Positions 5,095 to 41,799 are shown, numbered from the stretch's first letter. The stretch: DNA of 64,000 nt from Bacteroidota bacterium (GCA_021813905.1 JAKAJH010000004.1:53654-117653); one strand, 5' to 3'. Notes: a model not told the origin generated them from the sequence alone. A program made the numbers and translations.

Positions 5095-5805
5095 CTACTT
5101 GCGGAGGGACCGGATCTTCTTCGTCACGCGCTCCAGTTCCTGACCGATGAGCGCCGGATCCAGGGTCTTCTCGGGTTCGTTTTCAAAGACCGCGTACGGA
5201 ATCTTAAAGCCCTTCACCTCGATGTAGTTCGGATTCTTCTTCTCCAGCGTTTCCCAGTCGTTCGTCTTGTAGTAGAACTCCATCTTCTCATCGGGAAGGG
5301 AGTGATACAGGATTGAATCCTCCTGGCCCTTTCGCGCGCGCCGACGGTTCTTGCGCACGGACTCTTCGTAGGACACGCGGATGTACATCAATGCCGCGTT
5401 CTTCAGCACGTCCTCATGCAGATAGCTCAGCGCCTCCGCGATGCCGTTGTCACCACCGCGGGCGAATTCAACGAGCACCGTCTTCCTGTCATGATAGTGC
5501 GGATCGCGCGCCACCTTCTTGCGGTACTCGAGGCTCATCCGCTCCATATACAGATTCCAGATGAAATGCTCACGGAACCAGTACTTCTCATCCGTCCAAA
5601 GACGCGGCTTGCCGTGCTTCGTCAGAATGTCGTCGATTTCGAACGTCTCCCACACATAGACGAAATCGTCCAGCTCTTCGAACTCGCCGATATGGAACCG
5701 TTTGAGGCGCTCGGCCGGATCCGCCTTCTTCAGGAAATCGATGACCTCCGACTTCCCCGCCGCCGGACGGCCGGTGATGATCAGGATCGGAAAATGTTCG
5801 CTCAT
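5095..5805 (-). CDS. P-loop NTPase / AAA_33-like putative kinase
   Basis: Walker A ILIITGRPAAGKSEV near the N-terminus. AAAGGAG RBS sits 23 nt after the stop of the upstream 5'-nucleotidase gene, so the two are operonic. Confidence 0.4.
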   Translation of the reverse strand: MSEHFPILIITGRPAAGKSEVIDFLKKADPAERLKRFHIGEFEELDDFVYVWETFEIDDILTKHGKPRLWTDEKYWFREHFIWNLYMERMSLEYRKKVARDPHYHDRKTVLVEFARGGDNGIAEALSYLHEDVLKNAALMYIRVSYEESVRKNRRRARKGQEDSILYHSLPDEKMEFYYKTNDWETLEKKNPNYIEVKGFKIPYAVFENEPEKTLDPALIGQELERVTKKIRSLRK

Positions 5806-10393: not shown

Positions 10394-10576
10394 GTGCGCC
10401 GCGTCACGCTGTTGATGTGACGGATGAGGCACCGTTGCGTGTTTCGACGGAGAGGGTGACCCGCGGGCCGTTGCCTCCGCGGGCATCATCCCCTATATTG
10501 ACAGGGCATGTTCACTTCCGAATTCCTTATGAATCCGTACGAATTCTATTCACCACGGTATCCCGCAGGAGAACCC

Positions 10577-12463
10577 ATGCGTCCGTTTGCCGGTCTCGCG
10601 CTTTCGCTTCTCGGTCTCGCACTCACTCCCCGTATCGACGTACTTGCCCAGGAGCGCGACCGAAGCCGCATCCCTGAAGAGTACAAGTGGAATCTGGCAG
10701 ATGTGTATCCGTCGGAAGCGGCCTGGCGGACGGCAAAGGAGGCGCTCGTCGCGAAGATCCCGGACGTGGACCCGTATCGCGGCACGCTGGCCTCCTCCGC
10801 GGATCAGCTCCGGGCCTGTCTGGACCTCACCACGGAGATGGGTAAGGAGTTCGCCCGTCTGTACAGCTACGCGAGCATGACGCTGGACCAGGACACCCGG
10901 GTCTCCACGGCGCTCGGCATGCAACAGGAGATGAGCAAGCTCGGCGCGGACCTGGGAGCCCGCACATCCTTCATCGAGCCGGAGATCCTCAAGGCGGATT
11001 CCGCGCGTATCTTCGGATTCGTGAACGCCGACAAGCGGCTGGAAGTCTACCGGCATTACCTCGACGATATTCTCCGACGCCGGGCACATACGGGGACCGA
11101 GGGCGAGGAGAAGATCATCGCGGACGCGAGTCTGATGGCTGATGCGCCGGAGAACATCCACAGCATCTTTGCGAACGCCGAGTTCCCGTATCCCGAGGTG
11201 ACCCTCAGCGACGGCAAGACGGTGCGGCTCGATCAGGCAGGCTACAGCCTCTATCGGGCTGTTCCCAATCGGGCCGACCGGGAAAAAGTATTCGCGGCAT
11301 TCTTCGACGCGCTCAATCAGTACCGCCGGACGTACGGCACCCAATTGAACGCCGAAGTGAAGAAGAACCTCTTCTACACCCGCGCCCGGAACTACGACAC
11401 GCCCCTCCACGCGGCGCTGGATGCGAACAACATTCCCGTTCAGGTCTATCACAGTCTCATTGAAAACGTCGACCGGAACCTCTCGACCTTCCACCGGTAC
11501 CTGGACCTCCGTCGCCGCATCCTGGGCGTCGACACGCTTCACTACTACGATCTCTACGCCCCGCTGCTCAAGGAGGCCGATCTCTCCTACACGTTCGACG
11601 AAGCCAAGCAGCAGGTGCTCGGGGCGGTCCAGCCGCTGGGCGCCGACTATGTGCGAACCGTGGAAGAGGCATTTACCCACCGGTGGATCGACGTTTATCC
11701 GACGGAAGGGAAGCGCTCCGGCGCCTACTCGAATGGCTCCGCCTACGACGTGCATCCGTACATCCTTCTTAATTACAACGGAAAGTTCGACGATGTGAGC
11801 ACGCTGGCGCACGAGCTGGGCCACACGATGCACAGCTACTACTCCAACAAGAACCAGCCGTATGCCACCTCGCAATACGCCATCTTCGTCGCGGAAGTCG
11901 CATCGACTTTCAACGAGGCGCTGCTGATGGATTATGTCCTCAAGAACATCCACGACGACAACATCCGGCTGTCACTGCTCGGCAACTACCTGGAAAACAT
12001 CAAGGGAACGGTGTTCCGACAGACCCAGTTCGCGGAGTTTGAACTCCGGATCCACGAAAAGGCCCAGCAGGGCGAGGCCCTGACCGGAGACGTTCTGAAC
12101 GATCTCTATATGCAGATCACGAAGAAGTACTACGGCCACGACCGGCACGTGTGCATTGTGGACGATGAGATCAAGTCGGAATGGATGTTCATTCCCCATT
12201 TCTACTACGACTTCTACGTGTATCAGTACGCCACCGCCTTCACCGCGTCCGCTGCATTGTCCGAGCGCGTCCTCGCGGGTGACGAACAGACCCGCAGCCG
12301 CTATATGACCTTCCTCTCATCCGGAGGTTCGGACTATCCCATCGCGTTGCTGAAAGACGCCGGCGTCGACATGACCACCTCCGCCCCCTTCGAGCTGACG
12401 ATGAAGAAGATGAACCGCGTGATGGATGAGATCGAGAAGATCCTCGACCGGACGAAAAAGTAG
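10577..12463 (+). CDS. M3-family oligoendopeptidase F (PepF-like), with signal peptide
   Basis: HELGHTMHSYYS zinc motif in an about 630-aa protein. N-terminal MRPFAGLALSLLGLALTP signal. Confidence 0.8.
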   Translation: MRPFAGLALSLLGLALTPRIDVLAQERDRSRIPEEYKWNLADVYPSEAAWRTAKEALVAKIPDVDPYRGTLASSADQLRACLDLTTEMGKEFARLYSYASMTLDQDTRVSTALGMQQEMSKLGADLGARTSFIEPEILKADSARIFGFVNADKRLEVYRHYLDDILRRRAHTGTEGEEKIIADASLMADAPENIHSIFANAEFPYPEVTLSDGKTVRLDQAGYSLYRAVPNRADREKVFAAFFDALNQYRRTYGTQLNAEVKKNLFYTRARNYDTPLHAALDANNIPVQVYHSLIENVDRNLSTFHRYLDLRRRILGVDTLHYYDLYAPLLKEADLSYTFDEAKQQVLGAVQPLGADYVRTVEEAFTHRWIDVYPTEGKRSGAYSNGSAYDVHPYILLNYNGKFDDVSTLAHELGHTMHSYYSNKNQPYATSQYAIFVAEVASTFNEALLMDYVLKNIHDDNIRLSLLGNYLENIKGTVFRQTQFAEFELRIHEKAQQGEALTGDVLNDLYMQITKKYYGHDRHVCIVDDEIKSEWMFIPHFYYDFYVYQYATAFTASAALSERVLAGDEQTRSRYMTFLSSGGSDYPIALLKDAGVDMTTSAPFELTMKKMNRVMDEIEKILDRTKK

Positions 12464-12517
12464 CCGCGTGAACGGACAAGGGCGCCCACAGCGGAGATTG
12501 CATCGCGCGTACGAATC

Positions 12518-13432
12518 GTGGCAGCAGTGATCATCCCATATGCCGGCTGGCAAAAATGCCTTCGGCTCAGCAATCCAGCCATCGACCTGGTCATCACGAC
12601 GGAAGTCGGTCCTCGCATTATCCGATTCGGATTGACCGGCGGACCGAACGAGTTCGCCGAATACCCCGACCAAGTCGGCACGAGCGGGGATGCGGCGTAT
12701 CATTCGTACGGCGGTCACCGTCTCTGGGTCGCGCCGGAAGAGAACGGCCGCACGAACCATCCCGATAATCTTCCGGTCGGATGGAAAATTGAGGAGGATG
12801 GCGAGATGGTGCTTCTCGCCCCGGTCGAAAAAGGAACGCAATTGCAGAAGCAACTGCGTGTGCAACTCGATCCAGTGAAGCCTCACGTTACCGTCATCCA
12901 CCGGATCACCAATCGCGGGAAGGCGGATGCGGTGCTGGCCCCTTGGGCGGTCACCGTTATGGCCCCGGGCGGACGGGCGATCATCCCGCAGGAGCCGTTC
13001 GTCGCGCACAGCAAACGTGTGCTGCCGGTGCGGCCGGTGGTGCTGTGGGGGTACACGCGGATGAAGGATCTGCGGTGGACGTGGGGAGACCGCTTCATTC
13101 AGCTCCGGCAGGATGCCGCCGGAGACGGTCCGCAAAAGATGGGGGCGCTGGTCACCGCGGGGTGGGCAGCGTACGCGAACGGCGACCGGATCTTCCTGAA
13201 GCGATTCGACTGCACGCCCGGTGCGTCGTACCCTGATTTCGGCTGCAACCTGGAGATCTTCACCAATCACCGCATGCTGGAAGTCGAGAGTCTCGGACCC
13301 GTGACGACGCTTTCGCCCGGCAAATCCGTGACCCATCGGGAAGATTGGTACCTCTTCTCCGGGATCCAATTGGGCGGCTCGGAAGACGCTCTTGCGAGTG
13401 CGCTGGCGACGATCCTCAGCCGGATTTCCTGA
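12518..13432 (+). CDS. Hypothetical protein (possibly a mutarotase-like fold)
   Basis: Long ORF with coding-like GC3 and no recognisable catalytic motif. Confidence 0.3.
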   Translation: MAAVIIPYAGWQKCLRLSNPAIDLVITTEVGPRIIRFGLTGGPNEFAEYPDQVGTSGDAAYHSYGGHRLWVAPEENGRTNHPDNLPVGWKIEEDGEMVLLAPVEKGTQLQKQLRVQLDPVKPHVTVIHRITNRGKADAVLAPWAVTVMAPGGRAIIPQEPFVAHSKRVLPVRPVVLWGYTRMKDLRWTWGDRFIQLRQDAAGDGPQKMGALVTAGWAAYANGDRIFLKRFDCTPGASYPDFGCNLEIFTNHRMLEVESLGPVTTLSPGKSVTHREDWYLFSGIQLGGSEDALASALATILSRIS

Positions 13433-13694
13433 ATACTACTCTCCCCCCTTCTCGTCCCACGCCCGATCCCAGCATGTGTCCCGGCGTCCGCTTCGGCCGA
13501 CGGAAATGCATCAGGAAAGGATTTCCGGAAACTGCCCCCCCCGGACGGTGCGAGGCACCTTAGGTGCGTGGCACGTTCAGGTGCTGAATATGCTGCAAAC
13601 GCAGCGTTTCTCCGATTCGCTGCCCGGACCGCCATTCACCGATCCCGTTCCACGGTTCGCCGAACAAGCCGCAACTCCGGCGAATTTCCTCGGT

Positions 13695-14099
13695 ATGTTG
13701 GAGGTGGACATCATCACTGACGGAGGACGCATGGATCGAGAACGTCGTCGCCTCTACTGGCACCTGGGTGTCGGTATCTTCCTGGTTGTCATCGGCACCC
13801 TGATGCTGCTTGACCGCTTCAATATCATCTATGTCGGATCGGTCTGGCATTTCTGGCCGGTGATCCTGCTCGCGGTCGGGTTGGCCCGCCTGGCAGACGC
13901 GCAGGAACGGCACGAGTACCGAAGCGCTTTCTTCTGGCTCTTCTTCGGCAGCTGGTTCCTCGCGAGCGAGCTGCACCTGTTCGGGCTTTCTTACCACAAT
14001 TCATGGCCGCTGCTGCTCATCGGCTGGGGCGTCAGCATTCTGATGCGCACCGGTCCGGAGAAACAGCATCATTCCGAGGAGACTGCCCATGGAAACTAA
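13695..14099 (+). CDS. LiaF-like multi-TM membrane protein (start uncertain: 13695 or 13731)
   Basis: Four hydrophobic segments (GVGIFLVVIGTLMLL, WHFWPVILLAVGLARL, FFWLFFGSWFLAS, SWPLLLIGWGVSIL). Overlaps the next gene by 11 nt. Confidence 0.35.
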   Translation: MLEVDIITDGGRMDRERRRLYWHLGVGIFLVVIGTLMLLDRFNIIYVGSVWHFWPVILLAVGLARLADAQERHEYRSAFFWLFFGSWFLASELHLFGLSYHNSWPLLLIGWGVSILMRTGPEKQHHSEETAHGN

Positions 14100-14787
14100 C
14101 GCGCGCTGGCACCTGCCCCGCCTGATCATCGGCTTCGGCATCGTTCTGATCGGTCTTCTGTTCCTGCTCAACAACCTCGACATCGTTGACGCGCATCAGT
14201 ACCTCCGGTTCTGGCCGGCCATCCTGATGCTTCTGGGCGTCGCCTACCTGATCCGGCCTGGCTCAGCCGGAGCGCGGGTGTGGGGAGCCGTCCTGCTCTT
14301 CGCCGGAACGGGCCTGCTTCTCGACCATATGGAGTACATTCATTTTCGTCTGTGGGATTTCTGGCCGGTCATTCTCGTCATTGCCGGCGGCAGCATCGTC
14401 CTGCAGGCTTACCGGTACCGGAACCGGCCATCGGCCGCTGCGGAAGCGTCGGATGATTCCACGATCACTGGTACCGCCGTGATGTCGGGCTTCAAGCGCG
14501 CGTCAAACGCCCAGGATTTCCGGGGCGGGCAACTCACCGCCGTCATGGGCGGCATCGAGCTGGATCTGCGGCGCGCATCAATGAAGTCCGGCGAGGCCGT
14601 CATCGACATCTTCACGATGTGGGGCGGCATCGAAATGCGCATCCCGGAAGACTGGACCCTGGTCAACCGGATGACGCCGTTCATGGGAGGAGTGGAGGAC
14701 GCCACCGTACCGCCGTCCACCGCCACGGGCAAACGCCTGGTACTCACCGGCACAGCCATCATGGGCGGTGTCGAAGTCAGGAACTGA
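14089..14787 (+). CDS. LiaF-like protein (N-terminal TM segments + C-terminal DUF2154-like beta domain)
   Basis: Membrane N-terminus, then a GGIELDLRRA...MWGGIEMRIPEDW...IMGGVEV repetitive C-terminus typical of LiaF/YvqF. Stop lies 4 nt before the kinase start. Confidence 0.45.
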   Translation: METNARWHLPRLIIGFGIVLIGLLFLLNNLDIVDAHQYLRFWPAILMLLGVAYLIRPGSAGARVWGAVLLFAGTGLLLDHMEYIHFRLWDFWPVILVIAGGSIVLQAYRYRNRPSAAAEASDDSTITGTAVMSGFKRASNAQDFRGGQLTAVMGGIELDLRRASMKSGEAVIDIFTMWGGIEMRIPEDWTLVNRMTPFMGGVEDATVPPSTATGKRLVLTGTAIMGGVEVRN

Positions 14788-14790
14788 CGG

Positions 14791-15852
14791 ATGCATCCCC
14801 TTCTGACCGGCCGCGGGACCATCGCGCTTTACGTCGCGGCCTGGCTCGTGATCGCGGCTCTGATCGCCGCGCTCCTGATCATCCCCGGGACGTTCGGGTG
14901 GAGCGCGGCAGCGATGCTCGTCCTGCCGATGGCCATCGTGTATGCGTTCATGTGCCTCTCATCGTACTACCTCTGCCGCGCATTTCCGCTCCTGAGCACG
15001 AACGTGCTCAAGGTTTTCATCGTCTTGCTGGTTGCCGCCGTGGCCACCAGCGCGGTCTGGGTGCTCGCCGGCAGCGCATGGGCAATGGCGCTCGGTTCGC
15101 TGTTCAACGATGCACAGTTCTGGGAACGTTATCGGCTTCAGTATCCTCTCCTCTTTGGAATCGGTGTCGTCCTCTCCCTGCTCGTTGCCGCCGTGCACTA
15201 CGTCATCATCGCATTCGAGCAGGCTCGTGCCGCCGAACGGCGCGCGTACGAACTTCGACTGCTTGCGCAGGGTGCTGAACTCAAGCTCCTTCGCGCTCAG
15301 ATCGACCCCCATTTCCTCTTCAACAGCCTCAATTCCGTCGCGGCGCTGATCTCGTCCGATCCGGACGGAGCGCGAACCATGAGTGTTCGACTCGCCGGCT
15401 TCCTGCGCGAAAGTCTCCGCCTCGGGGCACAGGAATTCATCGCCGTCCGCGAGGAACTCGCCCTCGCGCGTGATTTTCTGCGAATCGAACAGGTCCGCTT
15501 CGGCAAGCGATTGCAGGTGGAAGAGTCCGTCACGCCCGACGCTGAGACGGTCATCATTCCTTCCCTGCTCCTTCAGCCCCTGGTGGAGAATGCGGTCACG
15601 CACGGCATCGCTCATCTTGTCGACGGCGGAACGATCCGCATCGCGGCCCGTCGCACCGCCGCCCGTCTGATCGTCGAGGTCTGGAATCCCTGCGATGCCG
15701 ATCGCCCCCGAAGCAAAGGGCCCGGCATCGGCCTTCAGAACGTCCGCTACCGGCTCTCCACGCTTTATGGCAGCGACGGATCTCTGGAGGTTGAGGAAAC
15801 GAATCGCTATTTTCGGGTGATCGTGAGTCTTCCCTCAACCGCCGAACGCTGA
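14791..15852 (+). CDS. Sensor histidine kinase, 4TM + His_kinase (LytS/YehU-type) + HATPase
   Basis: QIDPHFLFNSLNSVAALI (His_kinase/PF06580-like) and LVENAVTHGI...GIGLQNV ATPase motifs, with 4 N-terminal TM helices. Confidence 0.8.
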   Translation: MHPLLTGRGTIALYVAAWLVIAALIAALLIIPGTFGWSAAAMLVLPMAIVYAFMCLSSYYLCRAFPLLSTNVLKVFIVLLVAAVATSAVWVLAGSAWAMALGSLFNDAQFWERYRLQYPLLFGIGVVLSLLVAAVHYVIIAFEQARAAERRAYELRLLAQGAELKLLRAQIDPHFLFNSLNSVAALISSDPDGARTMSVRLAGFLRESLRLGAQEFIAVREELALARDFLRIEQVRFGKRLQVEESVTPDAETVIIPSLLLQPLVENAVTHGIAHLVDGGTIRIAARRTAARLIVEVWNPCDADRPRSKGPGIGLQNVRYRLSTLYGSDGSLEVEETNRYFRVIVSLPSTAER

Positions 15853-16611
15853 ATGCCTTCCGACCGCCGATCCGCTCCGTTGCGCGCCGTCATCGTGGAT
15901 GACGAGACTCCGGCCCGGCAGCTCCTTCGCGAGTATCTTGGCGACTTTCCCGGCATCGATCTGGTGGGAGAATGCGCGAACGGATTCGAGGCGGTGAAGC
16001 TCCTCCCTGAACTGAAGCCGGACCTGCTCTTTCTCGACATTCAGATGCCGAAGCTCACCGGCTTCGAAGTGCTGGAACTGATCGAGCCGCCGCCGGCGGT
16101 CATCTTCGCCACCGCGTACGACCAGTTCGCGCTCAAGGCCTTCGAGATCCACGCCGTGGACTATCTGCTGAAGCCGTTCAGCAAGGAGCGTCTCGCGGAA
16201 GCGGTGGATCGGGCCCGCGAACGCCTCCATCATCACCGAAAGTTGCCTGTCGCCTCCCTCGCCACGGAGGCGCGCGGCACGGGGACACCGCTCGAGAGAG
16301 TGCTGATCAAGGAGGGCTCCCGGGTCCACGTTATTCCGGTCGATCGGATCGACTACATCGAGGCGGAAGACGACTACGTGTCCATCCATGCCGACGGCAA
16401 GAAGCATCTGAAGCAGCAGCGTCTGACGGAGCTGGAAGGCCTGCTCGATTCGCAGCGCTTTGTCCGCGTTCATCGCTCGTTTATCATCAACATCGACCGG
16501 ATCGCGCGGATCGAGCTGTACGCAAAGGACAGCCGTGTGGCAATCCTGAAGGACGGCAGACAGCTCCAGATCAGCCGTTCCGGATACGAGAAGTTGAAAG
16601 ATCGTCTCTGA
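15853..16611 (+). CDS. LytTR-family response regulator
   Basis: REC domain (VIVDDE...LLFLDIQMP...YLLKP) plus a C-terminal LytTR domain (VHRSFIINIDRI). ATG directly abuts the kinase stop. Confidence 0.85.
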   Translation: MPSDRRSAPLRAVIVDDETPARQLLREYLGDFPGIDLVGECANGFEAVKLLPELKPDLLFLDIQMPKLTGFEVLELIEPPPAVIFATAYDQFALKAFEIHAVDYLLKPFSKERLAEAVDRARERLHHHRKLPVASLATEARGTGTPLERVLIKEGSRVHVIPVDRIDYIEAEDDYVSIHADGKKHLKQQRLTELEGLLDSQRFVRVHRSFIINIDRIARIELYAKDSRVAILKDGRQLQISRSGYEKLKDRL

Positions 16612-16648
16612 GTTGGACACACACAAATCGCCGATGGGAGGACAGATC

Positions 16649-17128
16649 ATGAAATCTCTCACGGAATGGATCGGAGCCGCGTTGCTGATGCCGGCCATGA
16701 GCGTTCCCCTGGCAGCCCAGCAGCCGCACGAAGCGATGGCACTGATGCGAGAGGACAGCCTGTTTGACGCAGCGACTGCCGCGCACGGAATCGAAGGATG
16801 GGTGGCCTCATTCGCGCCGAACGGTTCCATGCTCTCCGACACCACGGCGCCGACCACCGGCACGGCGGCCATCCGCGATGCAATGGCGGGATTCTTCGCC
16901 GACTCCAGCGCATCCCTGCGGTGGAAGCCGACGTCAGGCGGCATGCTCCTTGCCGGGAAGGTCGGCTATACGATCGGCACCTATGAGCGGCGTCGCCGGA
17001 ATTCCGCCGGTGTACTGATGCGGGCCACCGGCCGCTACACAACTGTCTGGATGAAGCAGCCCGACCACTCCTGGAAGATCATCCTCGACACCGGCGCGGC
17101 GGATGGACCGCCCGAAGAAGTGAGGTAG
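16649..17128 (+). CDS. Secreted SnoaL/DUF4440-like (NTF2 fold) protein
   Basis: Signal peptide MKSLTEWIGAALLMPAMSVPLAAQ; about 135-aa mature domain with a W..F..GY.T pattern. Confidence 0.4.
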   Translation: MKSLTEWIGAALLMPAMSVPLAAQQPHEAMALMREDSLFDAATAAHGIEGWVASFAPNGSMLSDTTAPTTGTAAIRDAMAGFFADSSASLRWKPTSGGMLLAGKVGYTIGTYERRRRNSAGVLMRATGRYTTVWMKQPDHSWKIILDTGAADGPPEEVR

Positions 17129-17136
17129 GCTCAGCG

Positions 17137-18594
17137 ATGGACACACATCACCAGCACGCCGGAGACATGGATCCGGAAGAATTCCGACGACTGGGCAAAC
17201 AGGTCGTCGATTGGATCGCCGACTATCTGAACGACGCCTCGAAGTATCCGGTGCTCTCGCGGGTCAAACCGGGCGATATCCGCGCCCAGCTTCCCGCCGT
17301 TCCGCCGACGCAGGCAGAGCCGATGCAGAACGTCCTCACGGACTTTGAGCGCGTGGTTCTGCCCGGGATCACGCACTGGAATCACCCCGGCTTCTTCGCC
17401 TACTTCGCGATCACCGGCTCCGCGCCCGGCATTCTGGGCGAGATGCTGGCATCGGCGCTGAACGTGAACGGGATGCTCTGGCGCACGTCCCCGGCGGTCA
17501 CCGAACTGGAAGAAGTAGTGCTCGACTGGCTCCGCCAGATGCTCGGTCTGCCCGGCTCGTTCAAAGGCGTCATCACCGACACCGCCTCGGTCTCATCGCT
17601 GGTTGCGCTCGCCGCGGCACGCGAGTCCATCCAACGGACCATCCGTGAGGAGGGACTCGCCGGACGTACGGATCTGCCGCGTCTCCGGATGTACTGCTCC
17701 GATCAGACTCACTCGTCCATCGAGAAGGCAGCGATCGTGCTGGGAATCGGACAGCAAGGCGTGCGGAAGATCCCGAGCGATCATGCGTTTCGTATGCGGG
17801 CCGACCTGCTCGAGAGTGCAATTCGTGAGGATCGGAAGAACGGCTGGCTTCCGTTCTGTGTGACAGCCACGGTCGGCACGACCTCAACCACCAGCATCGA
17901 TCCGGTACGGGCCATCGCGGAGATCTGCCGGCGCGAGGCATTATGGCTTCACGTCGACGGCGCATACGGCGGCGTCGCCGGGATCGTGCCCGAGCTGCGG
18001 TCGGCTCTTGACGGCTGCGAACTCGCAGATTCATTCGTCGTCAATCCGCACAAGTGGCTGTTCACGCCCATCGACTGCAGCTGCCTCTACACCCGTCATG
18101 TCGATGTTCTGACCCAGGCGTTCAGTCTCGTCCCGGAGTATCTTCGCACCGCCGAACAGGGCGTGACGAACTACATGGACTGGGGTGTTCAACTCGGGCG
18201 GCGCTTCCGATCGCTGAAGCTGTGGTTCGTCATCCGGTCGTTCGGGGTGGAGGGACTCGCGGAGCGGATCCGAAACCACTGTCGCCTTGCCGCCGATCTC
18301 GCAGCACGTGTCGACCGGGAACCGGGCTTTGAACGGCTCGCCCCTGTGCCCTTCAGCGTGGTCTGCTTCCGCTGTCATCCGGCCGGCATAGACGATGAGG
18401 CCGCGCTGGAGACGCTGAACACCCGCATCCTGAACGCCGTGAACGAGTCCGGCGACGTGTTCCTCTCCCACACCAAACTGAACGGGCGCTATGCGATCCG
18501 GATCGCCATCGGCAATCTGCGCTCGCGGCAGGAACATATCGACCGCGCGTGGGACCTGATCCGACATCACGCCCGCGCGCTGGAGCCTCATTGA
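17137..18594 (+). CDS. Group II pyridoxal-phosphate-dependent decarboxylase (aromatic-L-amino-acid/tyrosine decarboxylase-like)
   Basis: FFAYF..SAPGILGEMLA, SCLYTRH, VVNPHKWLFTPIDCSCLY motifs, with the PLP-lysine in NPHKW. Confidence 0.85.
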   Translation: MDTHHQHAGDMDPEEFRRLGKQVVDWIADYLNDASKYPVLSRVKPGDIRAQLPAVPPTQAEPMQNVLTDFERVVLPGITHWNHPGFFAYFAITGSAPGILGEMLASALNVNGMLWRTSPAVTELEEVVLDWLRQMLGLPGSFKGVITDTASVSSLVALAAARESIQRTIREEGLAGRTDLPRLRMYCSDQTHSSIEKAAIVLGIGQQGVRKIPSDHAFRMRADLLESAIREDRKNGWLPFCVTATVGTTSTTSIDPVRAIAEICRREALWLHVDGAYGGVAGIVPELRSALDGCELADSFVVNPHKWLFTPIDCSCLYTRHVDVLTQAFSLVPEYLRTAEQGVTNYMDWGVQLGRRFRSLKLWFVIRSFGVEGLAERIRNHCRLAADLAARVDREPGFERLAPVPFSVVCFRCHPAGIDDEAALETLNTRILNAVNESGDVFLSHTKLNGRYAIRIAIGNLRSRQEHIDRAWDLIRHHARALEPH

Positions 18595-18618
18595 TCGCAC
18601 CACGATCCGAAGTCACTG

Positions 18619-18831
18619 ATGAAGATTGATCCCGCAATTCAAGTCTGTGCTTCGTGCCGCCGGCCGGCGGCCGATGTGCCGCTGATCCCTCTGGCGTACC
18701 AGTCGGCCTCCTACTGGATCTGCCCCCAATGTCTTCCAGTGCTGATCCACGCGCCGCAGAAACTCGTCGGGAAGCTGCCGAACGCCGAGCGGCTGGGGTC
18801 GGTGCCGAAGGACGGCTACGCGCACCACTGA
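18619..18831 (+). CDS. Small Cys-rich (CxxC ... CPQC) hypothetical protein
   Basis: 70-codon ORF with high GC3 lying 25 nt after the decarboxylase stop; CASCRR..x24..CPQC zinc-ribbon-like spacing. Confidence 0.25.
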   Translation: MKIDPAIQVCASCRRPAADVPLIPLAYQSASYWICPQCLPVLIHAPQKLVGKLPNAERLGSVPKDGYAHH

Positions 18832-18966
18832 TGGCGCGGCCGCACCGTATTGCGGCTGAAGACTCCATCCGATAGATTGTGTCATTCGGAACGCTGTCCT
18901 GATGCCCGAACCCTGATCGGCACGGCCGGTGCGGTGCCGGCGGCATTCCCCTGGAAAGGTGTTCTC

Positions 18967-20640
18967 ATGAAACTCGTGCTTCTCGCGCCCATGCTCCTTC
19001 CCTTCCTGACCATCGCCTGCGCGCCCAACGACACGGAAGACCGTGTCCGCGCATTCATCGCGCATCATCAGTCTGTCGTGGAGCCGAAGCTCCGCGCCAT
19101 GAATCTGGCGTCATGGAACGCCAGTGCGACCGGCGAGAAGCGGTACTATGACGAGCAGGCGGCGCTGGAAATGGATGTGCGACGGATCTACGCAAGCAAG
19201 GATGAATTTACGCAACTCGCCCGCTGGAAGGCTTCCGGCTCGGTGCAGGATTCGCTCCTGATGCGGCAGCTGACCATACTGTACAACTCGTATCTCGCGA
19301 GCCAGATGGACACGGCTCTGATGCAGCGGATCGTGGACCAGAGCGCCGCAATCGCCGAGCGGTTCAATACGTTCCGACCCGTACTGCACGGCCGCGAAGT
19401 CAGTGACAATGAGATCGACGATGTGCTCCGCACGGAACGCGATCCGGCGAAGCGCCGCGCCGCCTGGGAAGCCAGCAAGGAGGTCGGCGCCGCTGTGGCA
19501 CCGATGATCGTCGAGCTGGTGAAGCTGCGGAACAAAGCCGCGCGGGGGTTGGGATTCGACAACTACTATGTGATGTCGCTGACCGTCGCCGAGCAGGACG
19601 AGCGCGACATCATGGCCCTGTTCGACGAGTTGGACTCCCTGACGGAGGAGCCATATCGGATGGTGAAAGCCGGCATCGACGCCCAGCTGGCGCGCCGTTA
19701 TGGCATCACACCGGCGGCTATGCGTCCGTGGCACTATCAGGACCGCTTCTTTCAGGAAGCGCCTCAAGTCGGCGTTGTCACTGTGGACGCTTACTTCCGC
19801 GGCCGGAAGGTGGACCAGCTGGCGCGCAGCTTCTACGGGGGCATCGGGCTTCCCGTCGATGACATCCTGAAGAACAGCGACCTGGAAGGACGCCGCGGCA
19901 AGTACCAGCACGCCTTTGAGACCGACATCGATCGCAACGGCGATATCCGTGTAATGCTGAGCATTCAGGACAATCAGTACTGGATGGGGGCGATGCTCCA
20001 TGAGCTGGGACACGGCGTCTTCTCGAAGTACATCCGGCGTGATCTCCCCTTCTTCCTCCGCACCGAATCGCACGCATTCGTCACCGAGGCAATCGCGGAA
20101 CTGATGGAGCGCCAGGCGGACAACGCCGATTGGCTGGCGGAGACCGTCAACCTGCGGGGCGCGGAGAAAGAGCGGGTGCGTACCGTCAGTGAAGAGAATC
20201 TGCGGCTCCGGCAGCTCATCTTCAGCCGCTGGTCACAGGTCATGGTCCGGTTCGAACGCACACTCTACAAGAATCCCGACCAGGACCTGAATACGCTCTG
20301 GTGGGATCTGGTGGAAAAGTACCAGCTCGTCCATCGTCCGGAGCAACGGAATGCGCCCGACTGGGCCGCCAAGATCCATCTCGCGCAGGTGCCCGTTTAC
20401 TATCACAACTATCAGCTCGGCGAACTGGCGGCCTCGCAGATCAATCATGTCCTGGCAAGCGATGTTTTACGAACGACGAGCATTCACCCGTCGTACGCGC
20501 GTCATCCCGAGGTCGGCGCGTACCTGAAGGACCGGCTGTTCGCGCCCGGCGCCAGCCTTCGCTGGGATGAACTGATGCGTGAGGCCACCGGCGAGCCGTT
20601 GACGGCAAAGTACTTCGCCCTGGAGTTCGTCGGCCGCTGA
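18967..20640 (+). CDS. M2-family (angiotensin-converting-enzyme-like) zinc peptidyl-dipeptidase, lipoprotein
   Basis: HELGH-x..-RDLP-x..-TEAIAE parallels the ACE HEMGH...KDLP...HEAIGD zinc site. Signal peptide + lipobox MKLVLLAPMLLPFLTIAC. Confidence 0.55.
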   Translation: MKLVLLAPMLLPFLTIACAPNDTEDRVRAFIAHHQSVVEPKLRAMNLASWNASATGEKRYYDEQAALEMDVRRIYASKDEFTQLARWKASGSVQDSLLMRQLTILYNSYLASQMDTALMQRIVDQSAAIAERFNTFRPVLHGREVSDNEIDDVLRTERDPAKRRAAWEASKEVGAAVAPMIVELVKLRNKAARGLGFDNYYVMSLTVAEQDERDIMALFDELDSLTEEPYRMVKAGIDAQLARRYGITPAAMRPWHYQDRFFQEAPQVGVVTVDAYFRGRKVDQLARSFYGGIGLPVDDILKNSDLEGRRGKYQHAFETDIDRNGDIRVMLSIQDNQYWMGAMLHELGHGVFSKYIRRDLPFFLRTESHAFVTEAIAELMERQADNADWLAETVNLRGAEKERVRTVSEENLRLRQLIFSRWSQVMVRFERTLYKNPDQDLNTLWWDLVEKYQLVHRPEQRNAPDWAAKIHLAQVPVYYHNYQLGELAASQINHVLASDVLRTTSIHPSYARHPEVGAYLKDRLFAPGASLRWDELMREATGEPLTAKYFALEFVGR

Positions 20641-34721: not shown

Positions 34722-34987
34722 GTCCGGGGGACTCCGCTCTGATCGTCGGGACGGCGGCCGGAACGTGCCGGAATGCCGTAGGGGAAAATATAGCCAATTT
34801 TTCCGCACCCATCAATTGATCCGTTCCCGAATGCCGTACCTTGCATGTCATCGCGGATTCGCTACATTGAATGAGGCACCCTCGATCCCCCCCCGTTCTC
34901 TTCTCCCCTCTTCCAGGGCGCGCATTTCCTCATGGCCCCGACGCACGTCGGGACGCGGTTCAAGTCACAAGATCGGGAGCATCCCCG

Positions 34988-36472
34988 ATGAACGTGCTGC
35001 TCGTAAATCCCCTGGTGCCGGACACGTTCTGGAGTTTCAAGCACGCTGTTCGGTTCGTTTCAAAGAAGACCACCTTCCCACCGCTCGGCCTCCTGACGGT
35101 GGCGGCAATGTTGCCCTCCGACTGGTCGCTTCGACTCTGCGACCTCAATGTTCGGCACCTGTCGGACCGTGAGATCCGGTGGGCGGATATGGTCTTCGTG
35201 ACCGGCATGTCGATCCAGGAGACATCGGTCCGCGAAATCATCGCGCGATGCCGGTCACTCCGCCGGCCGATGGTCGCCGGAGGGCCGCTCTTCACCGCCC
35301 GGTCGGAGGAATTCCCCGACGTGGACCATCTGGTCCTGAACGAAGCGGAGCTCACCCTGCCGGCGTTTTTGGACGATCTTCGGTCCGGTCATCCGGCGCG
35401 CGTGTATCGTTCCGACGCCTGGGCGGATGTAACCGCCACTCCCGTTCCTCTGTGGCGTCTCATCGATCAGCGCCGGTACTCGAACATGAACATTCAGTAC
35501 TCGCGCGGTTGTCCCTACGACTGCGAGTTCTGCGACATCACCGTCCTCTACGGTCGCGTTCCCCGGACAAAGACCAGGGACCAGTTGCTGCGGGAATTCG
35601 ATGCGCTCTACGAAAGCGGGTGGCGGGGGGATGTGTTTCTCGTTGACGACAACTTCATCGGAAACCGGCGGAAACTGAAGTCGGAGATCCTGCCGGCCCT
35701 GATCGAATGGCGCCAACGCCGCAGGGATCCCTTCTCGCTGAACACCGAGGCATCCATCAACCTGGCGGACGACGAAGAGCTGATGAACCTGATGGTGCGC
35801 GCGGGATTCTCCGTCGTGTTCGTGGGGATCGAGTCACCGCACGAGAAGAGTCTTGAGGAATGCCGGAAGATGCCGAATCGCGGGCGCGATCTCGCCGGAT
35901 CCGTCCGCGTCCTTCAGGATCACGGTCTTCAGGTCCAGGGCGGATTCATCGTGGGATTTGACAGTGATCCCGTCTCGATCTTTGAACGCCTGATCGCGTT
36001 CATTCAGGAGACCGGTATCGTCACAGCCATGGTGGGGCTCCTGAATGCTCCCATCGGATCCCGTCTCCATCAGCGTCTGGTGAAGGAAGGCCGGTTGCTC
36101 ACGGCGATGTCGGGCGACAACACCGACTTCTCGATGAACTTTCTTCCCCGCATGAACCTCGAGACACTCGTCAGCGGCTACCGGTCCGTTCTCCAGACGA
36201 TCTACGCGCCGAAGCAGTACTACGCGCGGGTGCGTTCCTTCCTTCGGAGGTACAATCCGCCGGCGACTTTCCGTATCCGCATCCGGCGCGTCCATCTGCA
36301 GGCACTCGTGAAGTCCGCGGTCATTTTGGGAATCTTCGGTAAGGAGCGGTGGGAGTACTGGAAGCTCTTCTTCTGGTCCCTCTTCCGCCGCCCGCGCCTC
36401 TTCCCGATGGCGATCACGTTCTCCATCTACGGATTCCATTTCCGCCGCGTGGTCGAACACTTTGCGGGCTAG
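34988..36472 (+). CDS. B12-binding-domain radical SAM protein (DUF4070-type C-terminus)
   Basis: N-terminal cobalamin-binding fold; YSRGCPYDCEFCDIT CxxxCxxC cluster. Confidence 0.8.
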   Translation: MNVLLVNPLVPDTFWSFKHAVRFVSKKTTFPPLGLLTVAAMLPSDWSLRLCDLNVRHLSDREIRWADMVFVTGMSIQETSVREIIARCRSLRRPMVAGGPLFTARSEEFPDVDHLVLNEAELTLPAFLDDLRSGHPARVYRSDAWADVTATPVPLWRLIDQRRYSNMNIQYSRGCPYDCEFCDITVLYGRVPRTKTRDQLLREFDALYESGWRGDVFLVDDNFIGNRRKLKSEILPALIEWRQRRRDPFSLNTEASINLADDEELMNLMVRAGFSVVFVGIESPHEKSLEECRKMPNRGRDLAGSVRVLQDHGLQVQGGFIVGFDSDPVSIFERLIAFIQETGIVTAMVGLLNAPIGSRLHQRLVKEGRLLTAMSGDNTDFSMNFLPRMNLETLVSGYRSVLQTIYAPKQYYARVRSFLRRYNPPATFRIRIRRVHLQALVKSAVILGIFGKERWEYWKLFFWSLFRRPRLFPMAITFSIYGFHFRRVVEHFAG

Positions 36473-36593
36473 ACGCCGTCCGAGACGCATCGGTCGGAAT
36501 CATCCGTGGGTCGGCGGAGCCAGTTCCGCGTACCGATCCGACGCGGATGTCGAATCCCCTCGGCACCCGCCGGCGGTTCCGCACACGATTCCA

Positions 36594-36710
36594 TCAACGC
36601 AGCAGGAACACGCGTGACACAACGGCCAGGATGAGCGCCAGAGCCGCCAGTGAGATGAGAGCGATCACCATGCGGCGGCGGTGCTGCAGATTCTGAGGGG
36701 GAGTGTTCAT
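36594..36710 (-). CDS. 38-aa single-TM micro-protein (candidate)
   Basis: MNTPPQNLQHRRRMVIALISLAALALILAVVSRVFLLR. GGGAGG RBS 5 nt upstream, high GC3. Lies in an otherwise empty 725-bp gap. Confidence 0.25.
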   Translation of the reverse strand: MNTPPQNLQHRRRMVIALISLAALALILAVVSRVFLLR

Positions 36711-37197
36711 CGGAGCCTCCCGGCAATCAGCGCCGGAGAACAGAGCGCGTGTGCTGACGGGCGTTGACCTGCGCGTTGTGTATCAGCGACTCACAAACGC
36801 CGCACAGAAGGATCGCGTACCGCGACCCGCCGACACACCGTTGGATCTTCCACACCCATGGCACGATTTGACGACATCGCGGGCAACGGTGCGGGCGGTG
36901 TTCCACCCGGACATCGATTCCCGATGGCATTGTCCCCCGGATCCGTCCGGCATCCCGTCGCACCATCCTCGCTCGTCTCCGCGTCGTGTTTCTTCTTGGC
37001 AGCACGGTACACAACGGAACCCATCCGTTCATCCGAATTCCGATAAGCGGCGAATCCCGTCGTCCGGCGGCAAACCGACCGGCAGCACCCACCCGCAGAC
37101 ACTCCATCCGACCAGCCGCTCGTCGAGTCCTGCTGCCGCTTGGCCGGGAGGTCTTTACTCTTGCGCAAGAAAGCGTCACATTGCTGCCGGAACGGCA

Positions 37198-38286
37198 ATG
37201 AGACGATTGCGCGACATTCTGCGGGGCGACTTTCGCACGCTCGGATTCTGGCATTTTCAGATCACCGGGTGGCTGCTGTTGTACGCAGGCGACATCGTCC
37301 TGATCATTGCCCGCGGGCGATCCCTGTCCGAGGGATTGACCGAGGCCTGCGAAACGCCGGTCGCCTTCCTTCTTTCCCTGGGACTGCGCCGGATTTACAC
37401 GCGCCTGGACTACAAGAGGCTCTCCGTGGTATCCCTGATCGCCTATCTCACCGTCTGGTCGCTGATCATTACGGGGGTCTGGTACGTGTTGATCGCCGCG
37501 ATCTGGTACTTCGCGATGAGCGCACGCATCGGCCTGGCGATGTTCGATCCCGGCTATGTGTTCCGGTGGCTGAATTATCTCGCACCGCTCTGGTTCTCCT
37601 GGAGCGCGCTCTACTTCGGGATCAAGTACTGGCGGGATTGGATCGACGAGAAGGAGCGCGCCCGCATCGCCACCGCTCTCGCGCAGAAGGCCCAGCTTCA
37701 GATGCTGCGGTACCAGCTCAATCCGCATTTCCTGTTCAACGCGCTCAATTCGCTCCGCGCGCTCATCGACGAGGACAAACGCCTCGCCAAAGGGATGATC
37801 ACGGAACTATCTGAATTTCTGCGCTACTCCCTCGTTTCCCGGCGCGCCACGAGCGTCCCGCTGCGCGACGAGCTCGACGCCATCCGGCACTACCTGGCCA
37901 TCGAGAAGAAACGGTTCGAAGACAAGCTCCAGGTATCGTTCGCCGTTGATCCGAAAGCCGAGGATGTTCCGGTCCTCAGCTTCCTCATTCATCCGCTTGT
38001 GGAGAACGCGGTCAAGTACGGCATGAAGACTTCCCCGATGCCGTTGCGGCTGAAATTGGAAGCGTCCGTCAATGACGGGGGATTGACGGTGGATGTGTGG
38101 AATTCGGGCCGGTGGCTCGACGAGAGCGATGCGGCGAAGCCCGGGGCCGGAACCGGTACGGGCCTCGAGAACACACGGGCCCGATTGGCCAACGCGTATC
38201 CCGGACGACACCATGTGGACGTGATCACCGAAGGCAATGCTGTTCACGTCCGGCTCCGCATCGACGAGATCCTGACCGAGGCGTGA
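37198..38286 (+). CDS. Sensor histidine kinase, 4TM + His_kinase + HATPase (paralog A)
   Basis: LNPHFLFNALNSLRALI, LVENAVKYG, GTGLEN. The upstream in-frame region 36703-37197 is low-complexity and probably non-coding. Confidence 0.75.
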   Translation: MRRLRDILRGDFRTLGFWHFQITGWLLLYAGDIVLIIARGRSLSEGLTEACETPVAFLLSLGLRRIYTRLDYKRLSVVSLIAYLTVWSLIITGVWYVLIAAIWYFAMSARIGLAMFDPGYVFRWLNYLAPLWFSWSALYFGIKYWRDWIDEKERARIATALAQKAQLQMLRYQLNPHFLFNALNSLRALIDEDKRLAKGMITELSEFLRYSLVSRRATSVPLRDELDAIRHYLAIEKKRFEDKLQVSFAVDPKAEDVPVLSFLIHPLVENAVKYGMKTSPMPLRLKLEASVNDGGLTVDVWNSGRWLDESDAAKPGAGTGTGLENTRARLANAYPGRHHVDVITEGNAVHVRLRIDEILTEA

Positions 38287-38289
38287 CGC

Positions 38290-39456
38290 ATGCGAGTACG
38301 TCTGACTCATCTTCGGGACTGGAGCTTCTGGCACTACCAGATTGCCGGGTGGCTGGTGTTTTGCGCCGGCAACCTTGCCGTCAATCTTCACGCGATGGGA
38401 TGGAATTCACGCGTCGTCGCCAGCCTTTGCCTTCAGGTGGTCGCGGCCGTCTCCCTCACACTCGGCCTGCGGCGTTACTATCGCCGGTTGCCGCATCGCG
38501 AGCTCGCACTGCCGGGCATCGTGTTCCGCATCGTGTTCTGTTCGTTCCTCGCGACGGTGGTGCTGCACGCGGCATTTCTCGGCATCGAGACGCTCTTCTT
38601 CGGAGCGAAATTCCTCGCGAAGGCCACTGCACATATCGCCTTCACGCTGCAGTGGATCGCGATCCTGTTCCCGGTGATGGTGGGCTGGAGCGCACTGTAT
38701 TTCGGCATCAAGTTCTATCGGGAATGGACCACCGAGCGCATCCGCGTTGAACAGGCCACCGAAGCGGCTCAGCGTGCCCAGTTACAGGCGCTTCGGTACC
38801 AGTTGAATCCGCATTTCCTGTTCAACACGCTGAACTCCGTGCGCGCCCTCGTGGACGAAGACAGCCGCCTGGCCAAGCAGATGGTCACCGAACTGGCGGA
38901 GTTCCTCCGCTATTCCCTGGTCAGCCGGAACAAGACCGAGCTCACGCTCAACGACGAACTGAATGCGATCCGACTGTATCTTTCCATCGAGCAGCGACGT
39001 TATGAGGACAAGCTCTCGGTGGCGTTCGACGTCGATCCCGATGCCGGCGACGTGCCGATGCCGAGCTTTCTGATCCATCCCATCGTCCAGAATGCCGTCA
39101 AGCACGGCCTCCGGACGAGCCCGATGCCGCTCCAGATCCGGATATCTGCGCACCGGACCGACACCAGGCTTCGGATCGAGGTCGCCAATTCGGGTTCGTG
39201 GATCGAGCCCGTGGAGGAAGAGCAGGACGCCGAGCTGGAGTTCGGTGCGGGACTCGAAAATGTTCGGGCCCGGTTGCAGGAAACATATTCCGGGCAACAT
39301 CACTTCGCGACGGAAGAACAGGACGGATTCGTCCACGCGGTTCTGGAAATACCGTTGCCGACGGGATCTCCGGGAGAAGCCGCTCCGGCGGTGACCTCCG
39401 GCCTGCTGTCGGGCTGGAACCGTCGACGCGCGCATCCGGAAAAGGTACCTTCATGA
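38290..39456 (+). CDS. Sensor histidine kinase, 4TM + His_kinase + HATPase (paralog B)
   Basis: Same motifs as paralog A; the two proteins are collinear. Start is 3 nt after the stop of paralog A. Confidence 0.8.
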   Translation: MRVRLTHLRDWSFWHYQIAGWLVFCAGNLAVNLHAMGWNSRVVASLCLQVVAAVSLTLGLRRYYRRLPHRELALPGIVFRIVFCSFLATVVLHAAFLGIETLFFGAKFLAKATAHIAFTLQWIAILFPVMVGWSALYFGIKFYREWTTERIRVEQATEAAQRAQLQALRYQLNPHFLFNTLNSVRALVDEDSRLAKQMVTELAEFLRYSLVSRNKTELTLNDELNAIRLYLSIEQRRYEDKLSVAFDVDPDAGDVPMPSFLIHPIVQNAVKHGLRTSPMPLQIRISAHRTDTRLRIEVANSGSWIEPVEEEQDAELEFGAGLENVRARLQETYSGQHHFATEEQDGFVHAVLEIPLPTGSPGEAAPAVTSGLLSGWNRRRAHPEKVPS

Positions 39457-40178
39457 AGAAGAAGCTTCGGGCTCTGATCGTAGACGACGAACGGCTCGCA
39501 CGCAAGGATCTGCGCACGCTGCTGATGGACGTGCCGACCGTCGAGGTCGCCGGTGAAGCGGACAGTGTTTCGTCTGCGGTCGCCATGATCGCGGAGATCG
39601 ACCCCGATCTGATCTTTCTGGACATCCAGATGCCGGGAGAATCGGGATTCGATCTGCTCGAGAGGACGGATCTTCGTGCCCGCGTTATCTTCGTGACGGC
39701 ATTTGACGAATACGCCATCCGCGCGTTTGAAGTCGATGCGGTGGACTATCTGCTGAAACCGGTCAGTCCGCAGCGGCTGGCGGCGGCCATTGAGCGGCTC
39801 GACCGGAAGACCGCCCCGCCGAACGGCAGCCGCCGCACGCTCTCCTTCGAGGATACGCTGTTCCTCTCCATCAATAATCACCTGAAATTCGTAAAGGTCA
39901 GCACGATCCAGTGCATCCAAGCCGCGGCGGATTATTCGGAGATCATGCTGTCTGACGGAAAGCGCGGTCTGGTTCAAAAATCGATGGCGGAGTGGGAGCA
40001 GCGGCTTCCCGCCGCACAGTTCTGCCGCATCCACCGCTCGACGATCATCAATCTGCAGGCCGTCGGCCGCGTGGAAGAGTGGTTCGGGGATTCGTATCAC
40101 GTCTATCTGGCGGGCGTGGAATCCCCGCTGGTCATGAGCCGCCGCTACGCCGTCCGGCTCAAAGAACGCCTCAGCTGA
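39453..40178 (+). CDS. LytTR-family response regulator 1
   Basis: LIVDDERLAR...LIFLDIQMP...YLLKP...IHRSTIINL; the ATGA overlaps the HK-B stop. Confidence 0.85.
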   Translation: MKKKLRALIVDDERLARKDLRTLLMDVPTVEVAGEADSVSSAVAMIAEIDPDLIFLDIQMPGESGFDLLERTDLRARVIFVTAFDEYAIRAFEVDAVDYLLKPVSPQRLAAAIERLDRKTAPPNGSRRTLSFEDTLFLSINNHLKFVKVSTIQCIQAAADYSEIMLSDGKRGLVQKSMAEWEQRLPAAQFCRIHRSTIINLQAVGRVEEWFGDSYHVYLAGVESPLVMSRRYAVRLKERLS

Positions 40179-40246
40179 ATTTGGGCCGTTGTTCCGCAGT
40201 AACTTCCCGCCACGGGATTTCGTATGCCGGAAGTAGTCCACAACCC

Positions 40247-41044: not shown

Positions 41045-41211
41045 TCCACCGTTTCGCCTCCGCAGACCGTATTCGCTTCGTGTCCGTCCGCTCTGACCGT
41101 CCGCCGGACCGGCTCATCGTATTCCTGCAACCTTCCATCCCCCGGGCGCGTCTTTCGGGATAGAGACACCGGGAACCAATCATCACTCACTACTCGGTAC
41201 AGGAGGTCGCA

Positions 41212-41682: not shown

Positions 41683-41799
41683 CGAGACCCGATGCCTGCG
41701 CCGCGGCGGCATCGCAGCGCAGGTGCGAAACTCCTGGTCCTGCGTCACGATTTGCGAACATCGCGGCCGCCTACGGGCGGCCGCGGCATATCCGGCACA

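Follow-up and report, generated by a model that had tools for sequence, protein, structure and literature searches.

LiaF and VraT are accessory regulators that are encoded with the LiaSR and VraSR two-component systems (PMC11237479). In a 64,000-nt stretch of a Bacteroidota bacterium (GCA_021813905.1, JAKAJH010000004.1:53654-117653; the whole stretch is termed the window below), two genes for LiaF-type membrane proteins, A and B, directly precede genes for a histidine kinase (HK) and a LytTR-type response regulator (RR). This raises the question of whether the four genes constitute one signalling module and, if so, how such a module would be controlled. We analyzed the locus and its relatives and propose, with a probability of roughly 55%, that it is a self-contained, positively autoregulated four-component cassette, which would act as a Lia/Vra-like intramembrane envelope-stress circuit on a LytS/LytTR chassis. 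The envelope-stress-like function in this proposal is suggested by homology.

First, the linkage of the genes was examined across genomes. A scan with a profile of B, using one genome per species, yielded at least 549 loci with a B relative. The best 80 of these, which are the nearest relatives, were examined with 6-kb flanks (913,746 bp), and gene presence and order were assessed by tblastn with the window proteins. By lineage, the 80 loci comprised 20 Ignavibacteria-like, 14 unclassified Bacteroidota, 4 Chitinophagales, 2 Chlorobi-labelled, 14 Acidobacteriota, 20 Oxalobacteraceae/Burkholderiales (including cultured Undibacterium, Massilia, Duganella, Pseudoduganella, and Rugamonas), and 6 others. 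Linkage of B, HK, and RR was assessable in 75 loci; in the other five, a contig ended inside the module. As observed, B, HK, and RR shared one strand and one order in 74 of the 75, spanning Ignavibacteria-like lineages, Bacteroidota, Acidobacteriota, Oxalobacteraceae, and others, and a separate A-like gene preceded B in 71 of the 80. The spacing recurred as well, with an A/B overlap of 8-14 nt and a B/HK gap of 2-3 nt. With 74 of 75 loci keeping both the order and the close spacing, the arrangement is far beyond chance. The linkage of LiaF-like genes with LytTR systems, for which an earlier note on this DNA had suggested a co-occurrence check, is therefore conserved across phyla, and the partner that it had named, a His_kinase/LytTR pair, was borne out by Pfam (PF06580 and LytTR). 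Among more remote LiaF-like proteins, linkage was sampled by two members only, P0252 (36% identity) and P0274 (300 aa), both of which had the same neighbours according to independent precomputed Pfam annotation. All-versus-all clustering of every open reading frame (ORF) in the 80 loci revealed no conserved fifth gene within 6 kb.

Two individual loci showed additional features. In an Ignavibacteriota metagenome-assembled genome (MAG), about 1.7 kb was inserted between HK and RR of an otherwise normal cassette (L038, 8158-9890). In one Acidobacteriota MAG, a defence-type TIR-nSTAND NTPase gene (1101 aa) lay directly downstream of the cassette (L059, 8529-11834), which probably represents an unrelated neighbourhood.

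Next, the gene junctions were read from the window sequence (Table 1). The TAA of A (14097-14099) lies behind the ATG of B, giving an 11-nt overlap. The TGA of B (14785-14787) is separated from the ATG of HK by 3 nt (cgg), and the stop codon of HK (15850-15852) and the start codon of RR form TGAATG. The stop codon of RR (16609-16611) is followed by 37 nt before the ATG of a DUF4440 gene. The tightly packed plus-strand module, the 11-nt overlap, and the TGAATG had been noticed earlier and were recovered here, whereas the two gaps had been given as 4 and 38 nt. The start of gene A had previously been placed at 13695. However, homologues of A align from the Met at 13731 onward, a GGAGG (13722-13726) lies 4 nt before this ATG, and the ATG at 13695 falls inside the conserved -10 hexamer TATGTT described below; therefore, 13731 is the more likely start. 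Translational coupling of A, B, HK, and RR behind one promoter is predicted from this arrangement, and the conserved overlaps, together with one conserved promoter upstream of gene A, support the single coupled transcript proposed in the earlier note.

The region upstream of A was then aligned across the loci. The alignment contained direct repeats with TTCRCCGA cores (extended form, CCnCCaTTCRCCGA) at a spacing of exactly 21 bp. In the window, the cores are TTCACCGA (13635-13642) and TTCGCCGA (13656-13663), 21 bp apart, and this site is the sole perfect match to TTCRCCGA-N13-TTCRCCGA in the 64 kb. When at most one mismatch was allowed, the repeat pair was found at 44 sites in 43 of the 80 loci, each time immediately before the cassette on its coding strand, and nowhere else on either strand of the 913,746 bp. 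Most of the other loci had recognisable variants of the repeats, e.g., with CCGG or CCTA cores. Furthermore, 43 promoters from several phyla could be stacked without a gap or indel, in the order repeat, N, repeat, AAaa..g.aAC (the weak -35), and GTATnnT at a fixed offset. The proposed promoter went undetected in a generic scan for sigma-70 promoters and terminators, whose hit counts did not exceed those in shuffled sequence. LytTR regulators are known to autoregulate and to bind direct repeats that lie in pairs just before the promoter (PMC6193735; PMC4227749). AgrA binds at P2/P3, where two direct repeats abut a sub-optimal promoter (PMC4227749), and the operons of the LytTR regulatory systems (LRS) similarly have direct repeats abutting a sub-optimal promoter, with self-activation (PMC6193735). 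Paired repeats abutting a weak -35, as found here, are the classic layout for a LytTR regulator dimer. Because, within the 80 loci, the repeat pair and the fixed-register weak promoter occurred only before the cassette, the LytTR regulator is predicted to positively autoregulate its own operon. The conserved promoter element is the new result of this analysis. No Rfam match was found in 12400-19000, and RNA folding of the intergenic region upstream of A gave z = -0.5, indicating no leader structure.

Three or more consecutive repeats with a 21-bp period were observed in some promoters of the Oxalobacteraceae loci (L050, L057, and L077) and in L079, the last of which contains the triple repeat TTCACTGA / TTCACCGA / TTCACCGA (5425-5474). 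Such arrays hint at higher-order regulator binding in Betaproteobacteria. In the window, another repeat (13541-13581) sits about 55 nt (13582-13634) upstream of the predicted regulator site. Its part GGTGCGAGGCACC / GGTGCGTGGCACG (13547-13577) was considered as the regulator site and dropped, as it was not conserved in the closest loci. The second copy was also considered as a sigma-54 -24/-12 box (TGGCAC-like) and was rejected, with the GC element one base out of register.

Table 1. Positions in the window of the cassette, its predicted control elements, and other genes
Feature	Position	Strand	Description	Support
Gene A	13731-14099	+	LiaI-like, 122 aa, four transmembrane (TM) helices	Pfam
Gene B	14089-14787	+	LiaF-like, 232 aa, four TM helices and DUF2154/Toastrack domain	Pfam, AlphaFold2, Foldseek
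HK	14791-15852	+	353 aa, four TM helices, PF06580 and HATPase_c	Pfam, hydropathy
RR	15853-16611	+	252 aa, REC and LytTR	Pfam
DUF4440 (NTF2-like) gene	16649-17128	+	Secreted	Pfam
Predicted LytTR-regulator binding site	13629-13665	+	Two direct repeats, CCGCCATTCACCGA and CCACGGTTCGCCGA	
Predicted activator-dependent promoter	13670-13699	+	Weak -35-like CGCAAC (13670-13675), 18-nt spacer, -10 TATGTT (13694-13699)	
Intergenic repeat	13541-13581		15-nt direct repeat GGTGCGAGGCACCTT / GGTGCGTGGCACGTT, 16-nt spacing; also imperfect inverted repeat	
Flanks	10508-13432 and 17137-20640		M3 oligoendopeptidase, DUF4380 protein, pyridoxal-phosphate (PLP)-dependent decarboxylase, M2/M3-type peptidase	
Second signalling cluster	34871-45713			tblastn, Pfam
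B12-binding radical SAM/DUF4070 protein	34871-36472		Second cluster	
PF06580 kinase	36703-38286		Second cluster; 527 aa, long N-terminal region	
PF06580 kinase	38290-39456		Second cluster	
Three REC-LytTR regulators	within 39198-40178, 39992-41044, 41692-42531		Second cluster	
HEAT-repeat protein	41212-41682		Second cluster	
TonB-dependent receptor	42651-45713		Second cluster	

The two membrane proteins were analyzed with Pfam and by structure prediction. The product of gene A matched only LiaF-TM (PF22570; 62 bits, 8e-17) and LiaI-LiaF-like_TM1 (PF18917; 64 bits, 1e-17), each against a gathering threshold (GA) of 27, indicating that it consists of the LiaI-LiaF-TM domain alone, as a small LiaI-type protein. 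B scored 60.5 bits with PF22570 and 72.1 bits with PF18917 (GA 27), and its four-TM domain is paralogous to that of A. All 33 sampled members of the B family matched PF22570, PF18917, and LiaF-like_C/DUF2154 (PF09922), the last at E<=1e-3 (best, 1.5e-10), and these three domains were shared by over 1000 full-length homologues (about 230 aa). An exhaustive phmmer search of 1.84 billion representatives assigned 515 clusters (50% identity) to the B family at E<=1e-30 and 3222 at E<=1e-10. The AlphaFold2 model of B, built on the family alignment, had a mean pLDDT of 77.8 and showed four long helices followed by five C-terminal beta-hairpins, which form a Toastrack beta domain (residues ~125-231). 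Its top Foldseek match in the PDB was 4QRK (probability 1.0, 122 aligned columns), the exemplar structure of the Toastrack fold that unites DUF2154, DUF4097, and DUF2807 (Ravi et al. 2024, PMC11237479). A PDB sequence search with the B family profile gave no match at E<=1, so only the fold search was informative. The LiaF/DUF2154 homology that had been noted for both products (the first under its former start, 13695) is thus supported by the Pfam matches, by all 33 family members, and by the 4QRK fold match. By the positive-inside rule, both termini of B, and hence its Toastrack domain, would be cytoplasmic, in agreement with the prediction that Toastrack is intracellular (PMC11237479). In GenBank, B homologues are labelled as DUF5668 domain-containing proteins, a name of which no mention was found in the literature searched.

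The kinase and the regulator were examined in the same way. HK matched His_kinase (PF06580, 81 bits) and HATPase_c, and hydropathy placed its TM helices at residues 13-31, 38-56, 75-93, and 124-142, with short loops of about 5 and about 30 residues. No Pfam match was obtained N-terminal to residue 162, and no separate sensor domain was recognisable. RR matched Response_reg (81 bits) and LytTR (89 bits). The His of DPHFLFN, the N-box, and the G-box were kept in 76 HK orthologues, and the DD pair, the phospho-acceptor Asp of LDIQMP, the Thr, and the Lys of the receiver were kept in 73 RR orthologues. Since these catalytic residues are conserved, the phosphorelay is presumably functional.

We then compared the cassette with known systems. 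LiaFSR (liaIH-GFSR, Bacillus subtilis) and VraTSR (Staphylococcus aureus) share with it a LiaF-type gene directly preceding that of a kinase that has no extracellular sensor domain, a regulator, a small LiaI-like four-TM protein that heads the operon, and a regulator-dependent promoter before the first gene with self-induction, the last being predicted for the cassette. However, the kinase of the cassette is of the PF06580 (LytS) type rather than HAMP plus HisKA_3, and its output domain is LytTR instead of a NarL/GerE helix-turn-helix; judged by these domains, it lacks two defining features of LiaFSR/VraTSR, the HisKA_3 kinase and the NarL-type regulator. It also differs in that no LiaH/PspA or LiaG gene is linked to it, its hosts are diderm (Ignavibacteria-like, Bacteroidota, Acidobacteriota, and Oxalobacteraceae), and B scores under the LiaF equivalog cut-off. 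With LytSR, BtsSR/YehUT, and YpdAB, it shares a PF06580 plus HATPase_c kinase and a REC plus LytTR regulator. In contrast to the cassette, these three systems lack a LiaF-like partner and activate transporter genes rather than their own operon, and their kinases carry a multi-TM LytS-type receptor and GAF and sense ligands such as pyruvate directly (PMC10653868). The nearest named family of RR was BtsR, at 182 bits against a cut-off of 246, and LytR reached 133 bits against 375, so RR lies under both. With regard to AgrCA and ComDE, the spacer of the cassette promoter is 18 nt; those systems use another kinase family and have a peptide pheromone and processing genes, none of which are at the cassette.

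A recent domain survey partly anticipates the cassette, with a passing mention of something similar. Ravi et al. 2024 reported that LytTR can occur with LiaI-LiaF-TM+Toastrack in Firmicutes, and their Table S4 lists 'LiaI-LiaF-TM+Toastrack -> HISKIN -> REC+wHTH' for Ignavibacterium album IALB_0443 and Saccharophagus degradans Sde_3902 (PMC11237479). Like the cassette, these two contexts place a LiaF-like protein before a kinase and a regulator outside Firmicutes, and Ignavibacteriae is among the lineages in which the cassette is most common. Compared by the table description only, they differ in that the regulator is listed as REC+wHTH (wHTH, winged helix-turn-helix) and not LytTR, and no small A gene or promoter repeats are mentioned. 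The survey describes neither a pairing of PF06580 with LytTR nor the small A gene, and it covers neither how widespread the family is nor the predicted autoregulatory site.

Possible further targets of the regulator were sought by scanning public metagenome contigs for TTCRCCGA-N10-CCRTTCRCCGAA. At least 120 loci were among the matches listed; in 42 of them, an A/B-like gene lay 90-240 nt downstream, usually followed by HK and RR, and all 42 cassette-linked sites had TAnnnT at offset 59 or 60. In the other 78 listed loci, many motif matches lay inside coding regions of recurrent protein families. An in-register -10 was present in 16 of these 78, against an estimated 2-3 or so expected by chance. 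Downstream of the sixteen were divergent A-like and short LiaF-TM proteins, two ABC ATPases, a MacB_PCD+FtsX permease, an HlyD adaptor, and two S-adenosylmethionine (SAM) methyltransferases. Among the 80 loci, several from Acidobacteriota have a TetR-HlyD-ABC ATPase-OEP set after the cassette, and 17 nt separate RR of L070 from genes for an ABC ATPase and an ABC-2 permease. No motif was found directly upstream of the cassette-near ABC ATPase genes of Acidobacteriota. These observations are suggestive, not conclusive, of ABC/MacB-type efflux as part of the output.

Three further groups of metagenome contigs carried the repeat pair before other genes. L118, L129, L134, and L138 carry the double repeat (TTCACCGACTCATTTTGCCCATTCACCGAAAAA) in front of a Dps/ferritin-like gene, behind which comes the gene for a LytTR RR with about 32% identity to that of the window; the promoter is AT-rich, without an in-register -10. 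These contigs may represent a related regulator with the same DNA specificity in a different module. In L182, the repeat pair precedes a secreted Lumazine_bd_2 protein of the NTF2-like clan, a single observation that echoes the DUF4440 gene behind the window cassette, and in L125 and L168 it precedes secreted DUF2807 (Toastrack-type) proteins. Neither of these last two groups has an in-register -10.

Our proposal for the control of the cassette, drawn by analogy with LiaFSR and VraTSR, runs as follows. HK would be an intramembrane sensor that senses nothing through a periplasmic domain and is complexed with B, and probably also with A through the paralogous TM domains of A and B. In unstressed cells, B would keep HK in an off or phosphatase state. 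A perturbation of the membrane or envelope would lift this block, after which HK would phosphorylate RR, and phosphorylated RR would dimerise on the two repeats and turn on the promoter of its own operon. With A and B expected from the same transcript, the positive loop would also raise the inhibitor, making the response self-limiting. RR would have other targets elsewhere in the genome, with a weak pointer to ABC/MacB-type efflux genes.

Several observations weigh against this proposal. No A gene was detectable in 9 of the 80 loci, and L047 (5947-6663) has an orphan full-length B homologue (PF09922, 33 bits) that adjoins a Sortilin/BNR-repeat protein, with no kinase, regulator, or A gene nearby; this is the one clear exception to the linkage. 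B itself scored 27.8 bits with PF09922, just under the GA of 29, and 20.1 bits with the NCBIfam LiaF_C_term equivalog domain NF040535, against a cut-off of 57. By the latter score, B is no LiaF orthologue in the strict sense. What the proposal assumes on the stimulus and on the direction of the effect of B on HK is taken from Firmicutes systems that have other families, namely a HisKA_3 kinase and a NarL-type regulator. No PspA/LiaH-like effector was linked within 6 kb in the 80 loci, whole genomes not having been searched. As for the output, a TetR gene stands between the cassette and the efflux genes in Acidobacteriota, and the candidate extra targets lie on single metagenome contigs with no tie to a cassette-bearing genome.

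Other explanations of the locus were weighed against the same evidence. One of them, which we consider unlikely, is a hybrid of a two-component system and an LRS, in which the Toastrack domain of B would dock and sequester the LytTR regulator at the membrane and phosphorylation by HK would add a second layer of control. The LRS of Streptococcus mutans (HdrRM and BrsRM) pair a LytTR regulator with a membrane protein that carries DUF2154 or DUF3021; the DUF2154 protein HdrM inhibits the regulator HdrR, and autoregulation proceeds through paired direct repeats just upstream of the operon's own -35 (PMC6193735). The cassette has the same type of pairing and the same promoter layout, from which positive autoregulation is predicted. 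Furthermore, the 2024 survey, which lists LytTR beside LiaI-LiaF-TM+Toastrack, proposes Toastrack as a docking platform for transcription factors (PMC11237479), so that a Toastrack/LytTR pairing occurs in two otherwise different types of system. However, LRS regulators have no receiver and no kinase is present in LRS, whereas the receiver and HK of the cassette are intact and conserved, and the cassette encodes two LiaF-TM proteins. The LRS is a two-gene operon with the regulator first, which is opposite to the order of the cassette, and the abutment of B on HK (a 3-nt gap here and 2-3 nt in many loci) fits a B-HK complex better.

Alternatively, A and B could be the output rather than the control: HK would use its four TM helices to detect a signal of its own, such as a membrane-soluble ligand or a small extracellular one, and RR would mainly induce A and B to protect or organise the membrane. 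A and B are indeed the first genes behind the sole conserved regulator site, with no other target within 6 kb in the 80 loci, and LiaI is an induced effector-side protein of the lia operon (PMC11237479). For LytS-type kinases, BtsS among them, direct ligand binding within the membrane domain has been described (PMC10653868). However, HK lacks the 5TM/7TM LytS-type receptor and the GAF domains of BtsS and LytS, and its loops are short. Moreover, the characterised LiaF-type proteins, LiaF and VraT, regulate the adjacent kinase and are not effectors (PMC11237479), and the near-invariant position of B right before HK suggests a stoichiometric assembly; we regard this explanation as quite improbable. 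That the adjacency is incidental is hardly credible: LytS/LytTR pairs are abundant, and the two other PF06580 kinases and three other LytTR regulators of the window have no LiaF-like partner, but order and spacing are kept in the 74 of 75 loci, in distant phyla with otherwise unrelated flanks, and all four genes lie behind one conserved promoter.

The cassette as proposed, an autoregulated Lia/Vra-like circuit, can be extended to a broader claim, which is doubtful at present. This claim would make it a distinct, horizontally mobile class of four-component sensors, in which LiaF-type intramembrane control of a kinase is fused with the LRS type of Toastrack-LytTR sequestration, the promoter is fixed across at least 4-5 diderm phyla, and the regulon centres on ABC/MacB efflux. 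If true, the class would be the Gram-negative counterpart of the Lia/Vra/Bce antibiotic-sensing modules, and LiaF-like proteins would prove to be portable regulators that can combine with kinases of unrelated families.

The cassette overturns nothing already known. LiaFSR and VraTSR are the reference systems for the sensing of cell-envelope antibiotics in Gram-positive bacteria. The family described here is large (at least 515 clusters at 50% identity; 549 or more species genomes). In its members, which come from diderm bacteria of soil and freshwater, the LiaF-type design is combined with another kinase family and another DNA-binding domain, which argues that the LiaF-type membrane and Toastrack module is a portable regulator and not a LiaS-specific partner. 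The cassette also connects the Lia module with the DUF2154-LytTR pairing of the streptococcal LRS. The conserved predicted binding site offers a ready reporter and a route to regulon prediction, and cultured Massilia, Duganella, and Undibacterium strains, such as Massilia niastensis DSM 21313 (L077), Duganella levis CY42W (L063), and Undibacterium sp. WLX3042 (L037), carry the cassette, making the predictions directly testable.

Finally, the neighbouring genes were inspected. The protein encoded behind RR matched DUF4440 (34.5 bits, 3e-08; GA 25.2), which has an NTF2-like fold, and it has a signal-peptide-like N-terminus. Its ATG is preceded by a GGAGG (16638-16642), and the generic terminator scan found no terminator-like site between RR and this gene, which is possibly co-transcribed with the cassette in the window. 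A homologue followed the cassette in 3 of the 80 loci only (L003, L007, and L008), all from the closest MAGs; therefore, the gene appears to reflect lineage synteny and not membership in the module, into which the earlier note had drawn it as a secreted NTF2-like protein. The PLP-dependent decarboxylase gene starts 8 nt after the DUF4440 stop codon. A decarboxylase gene lay downstream in 5 of the 80 loci and an M3 peptidase gene upstream in about 16; like that of DUF4440, this synteny was confined to the closest Ignavibacteria-like/Bacteroidota MAGs. The flanks as a whole share synteny, at 57-78% protein identity, with MAGs from Ignavibacteria-like lineages and Bacteroidota (L001-L009 and others).

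The cluster at 34871-45713 contains neither a LiaF-like gene nor a TTCRCCGA repeat site. It accounts for the statement that the kinase/regulator architecture recurs twice more in the window: two further PF06580 kinases and three REC-LytTR regulators were indeed found, and they form one cluster instead of two pairs.

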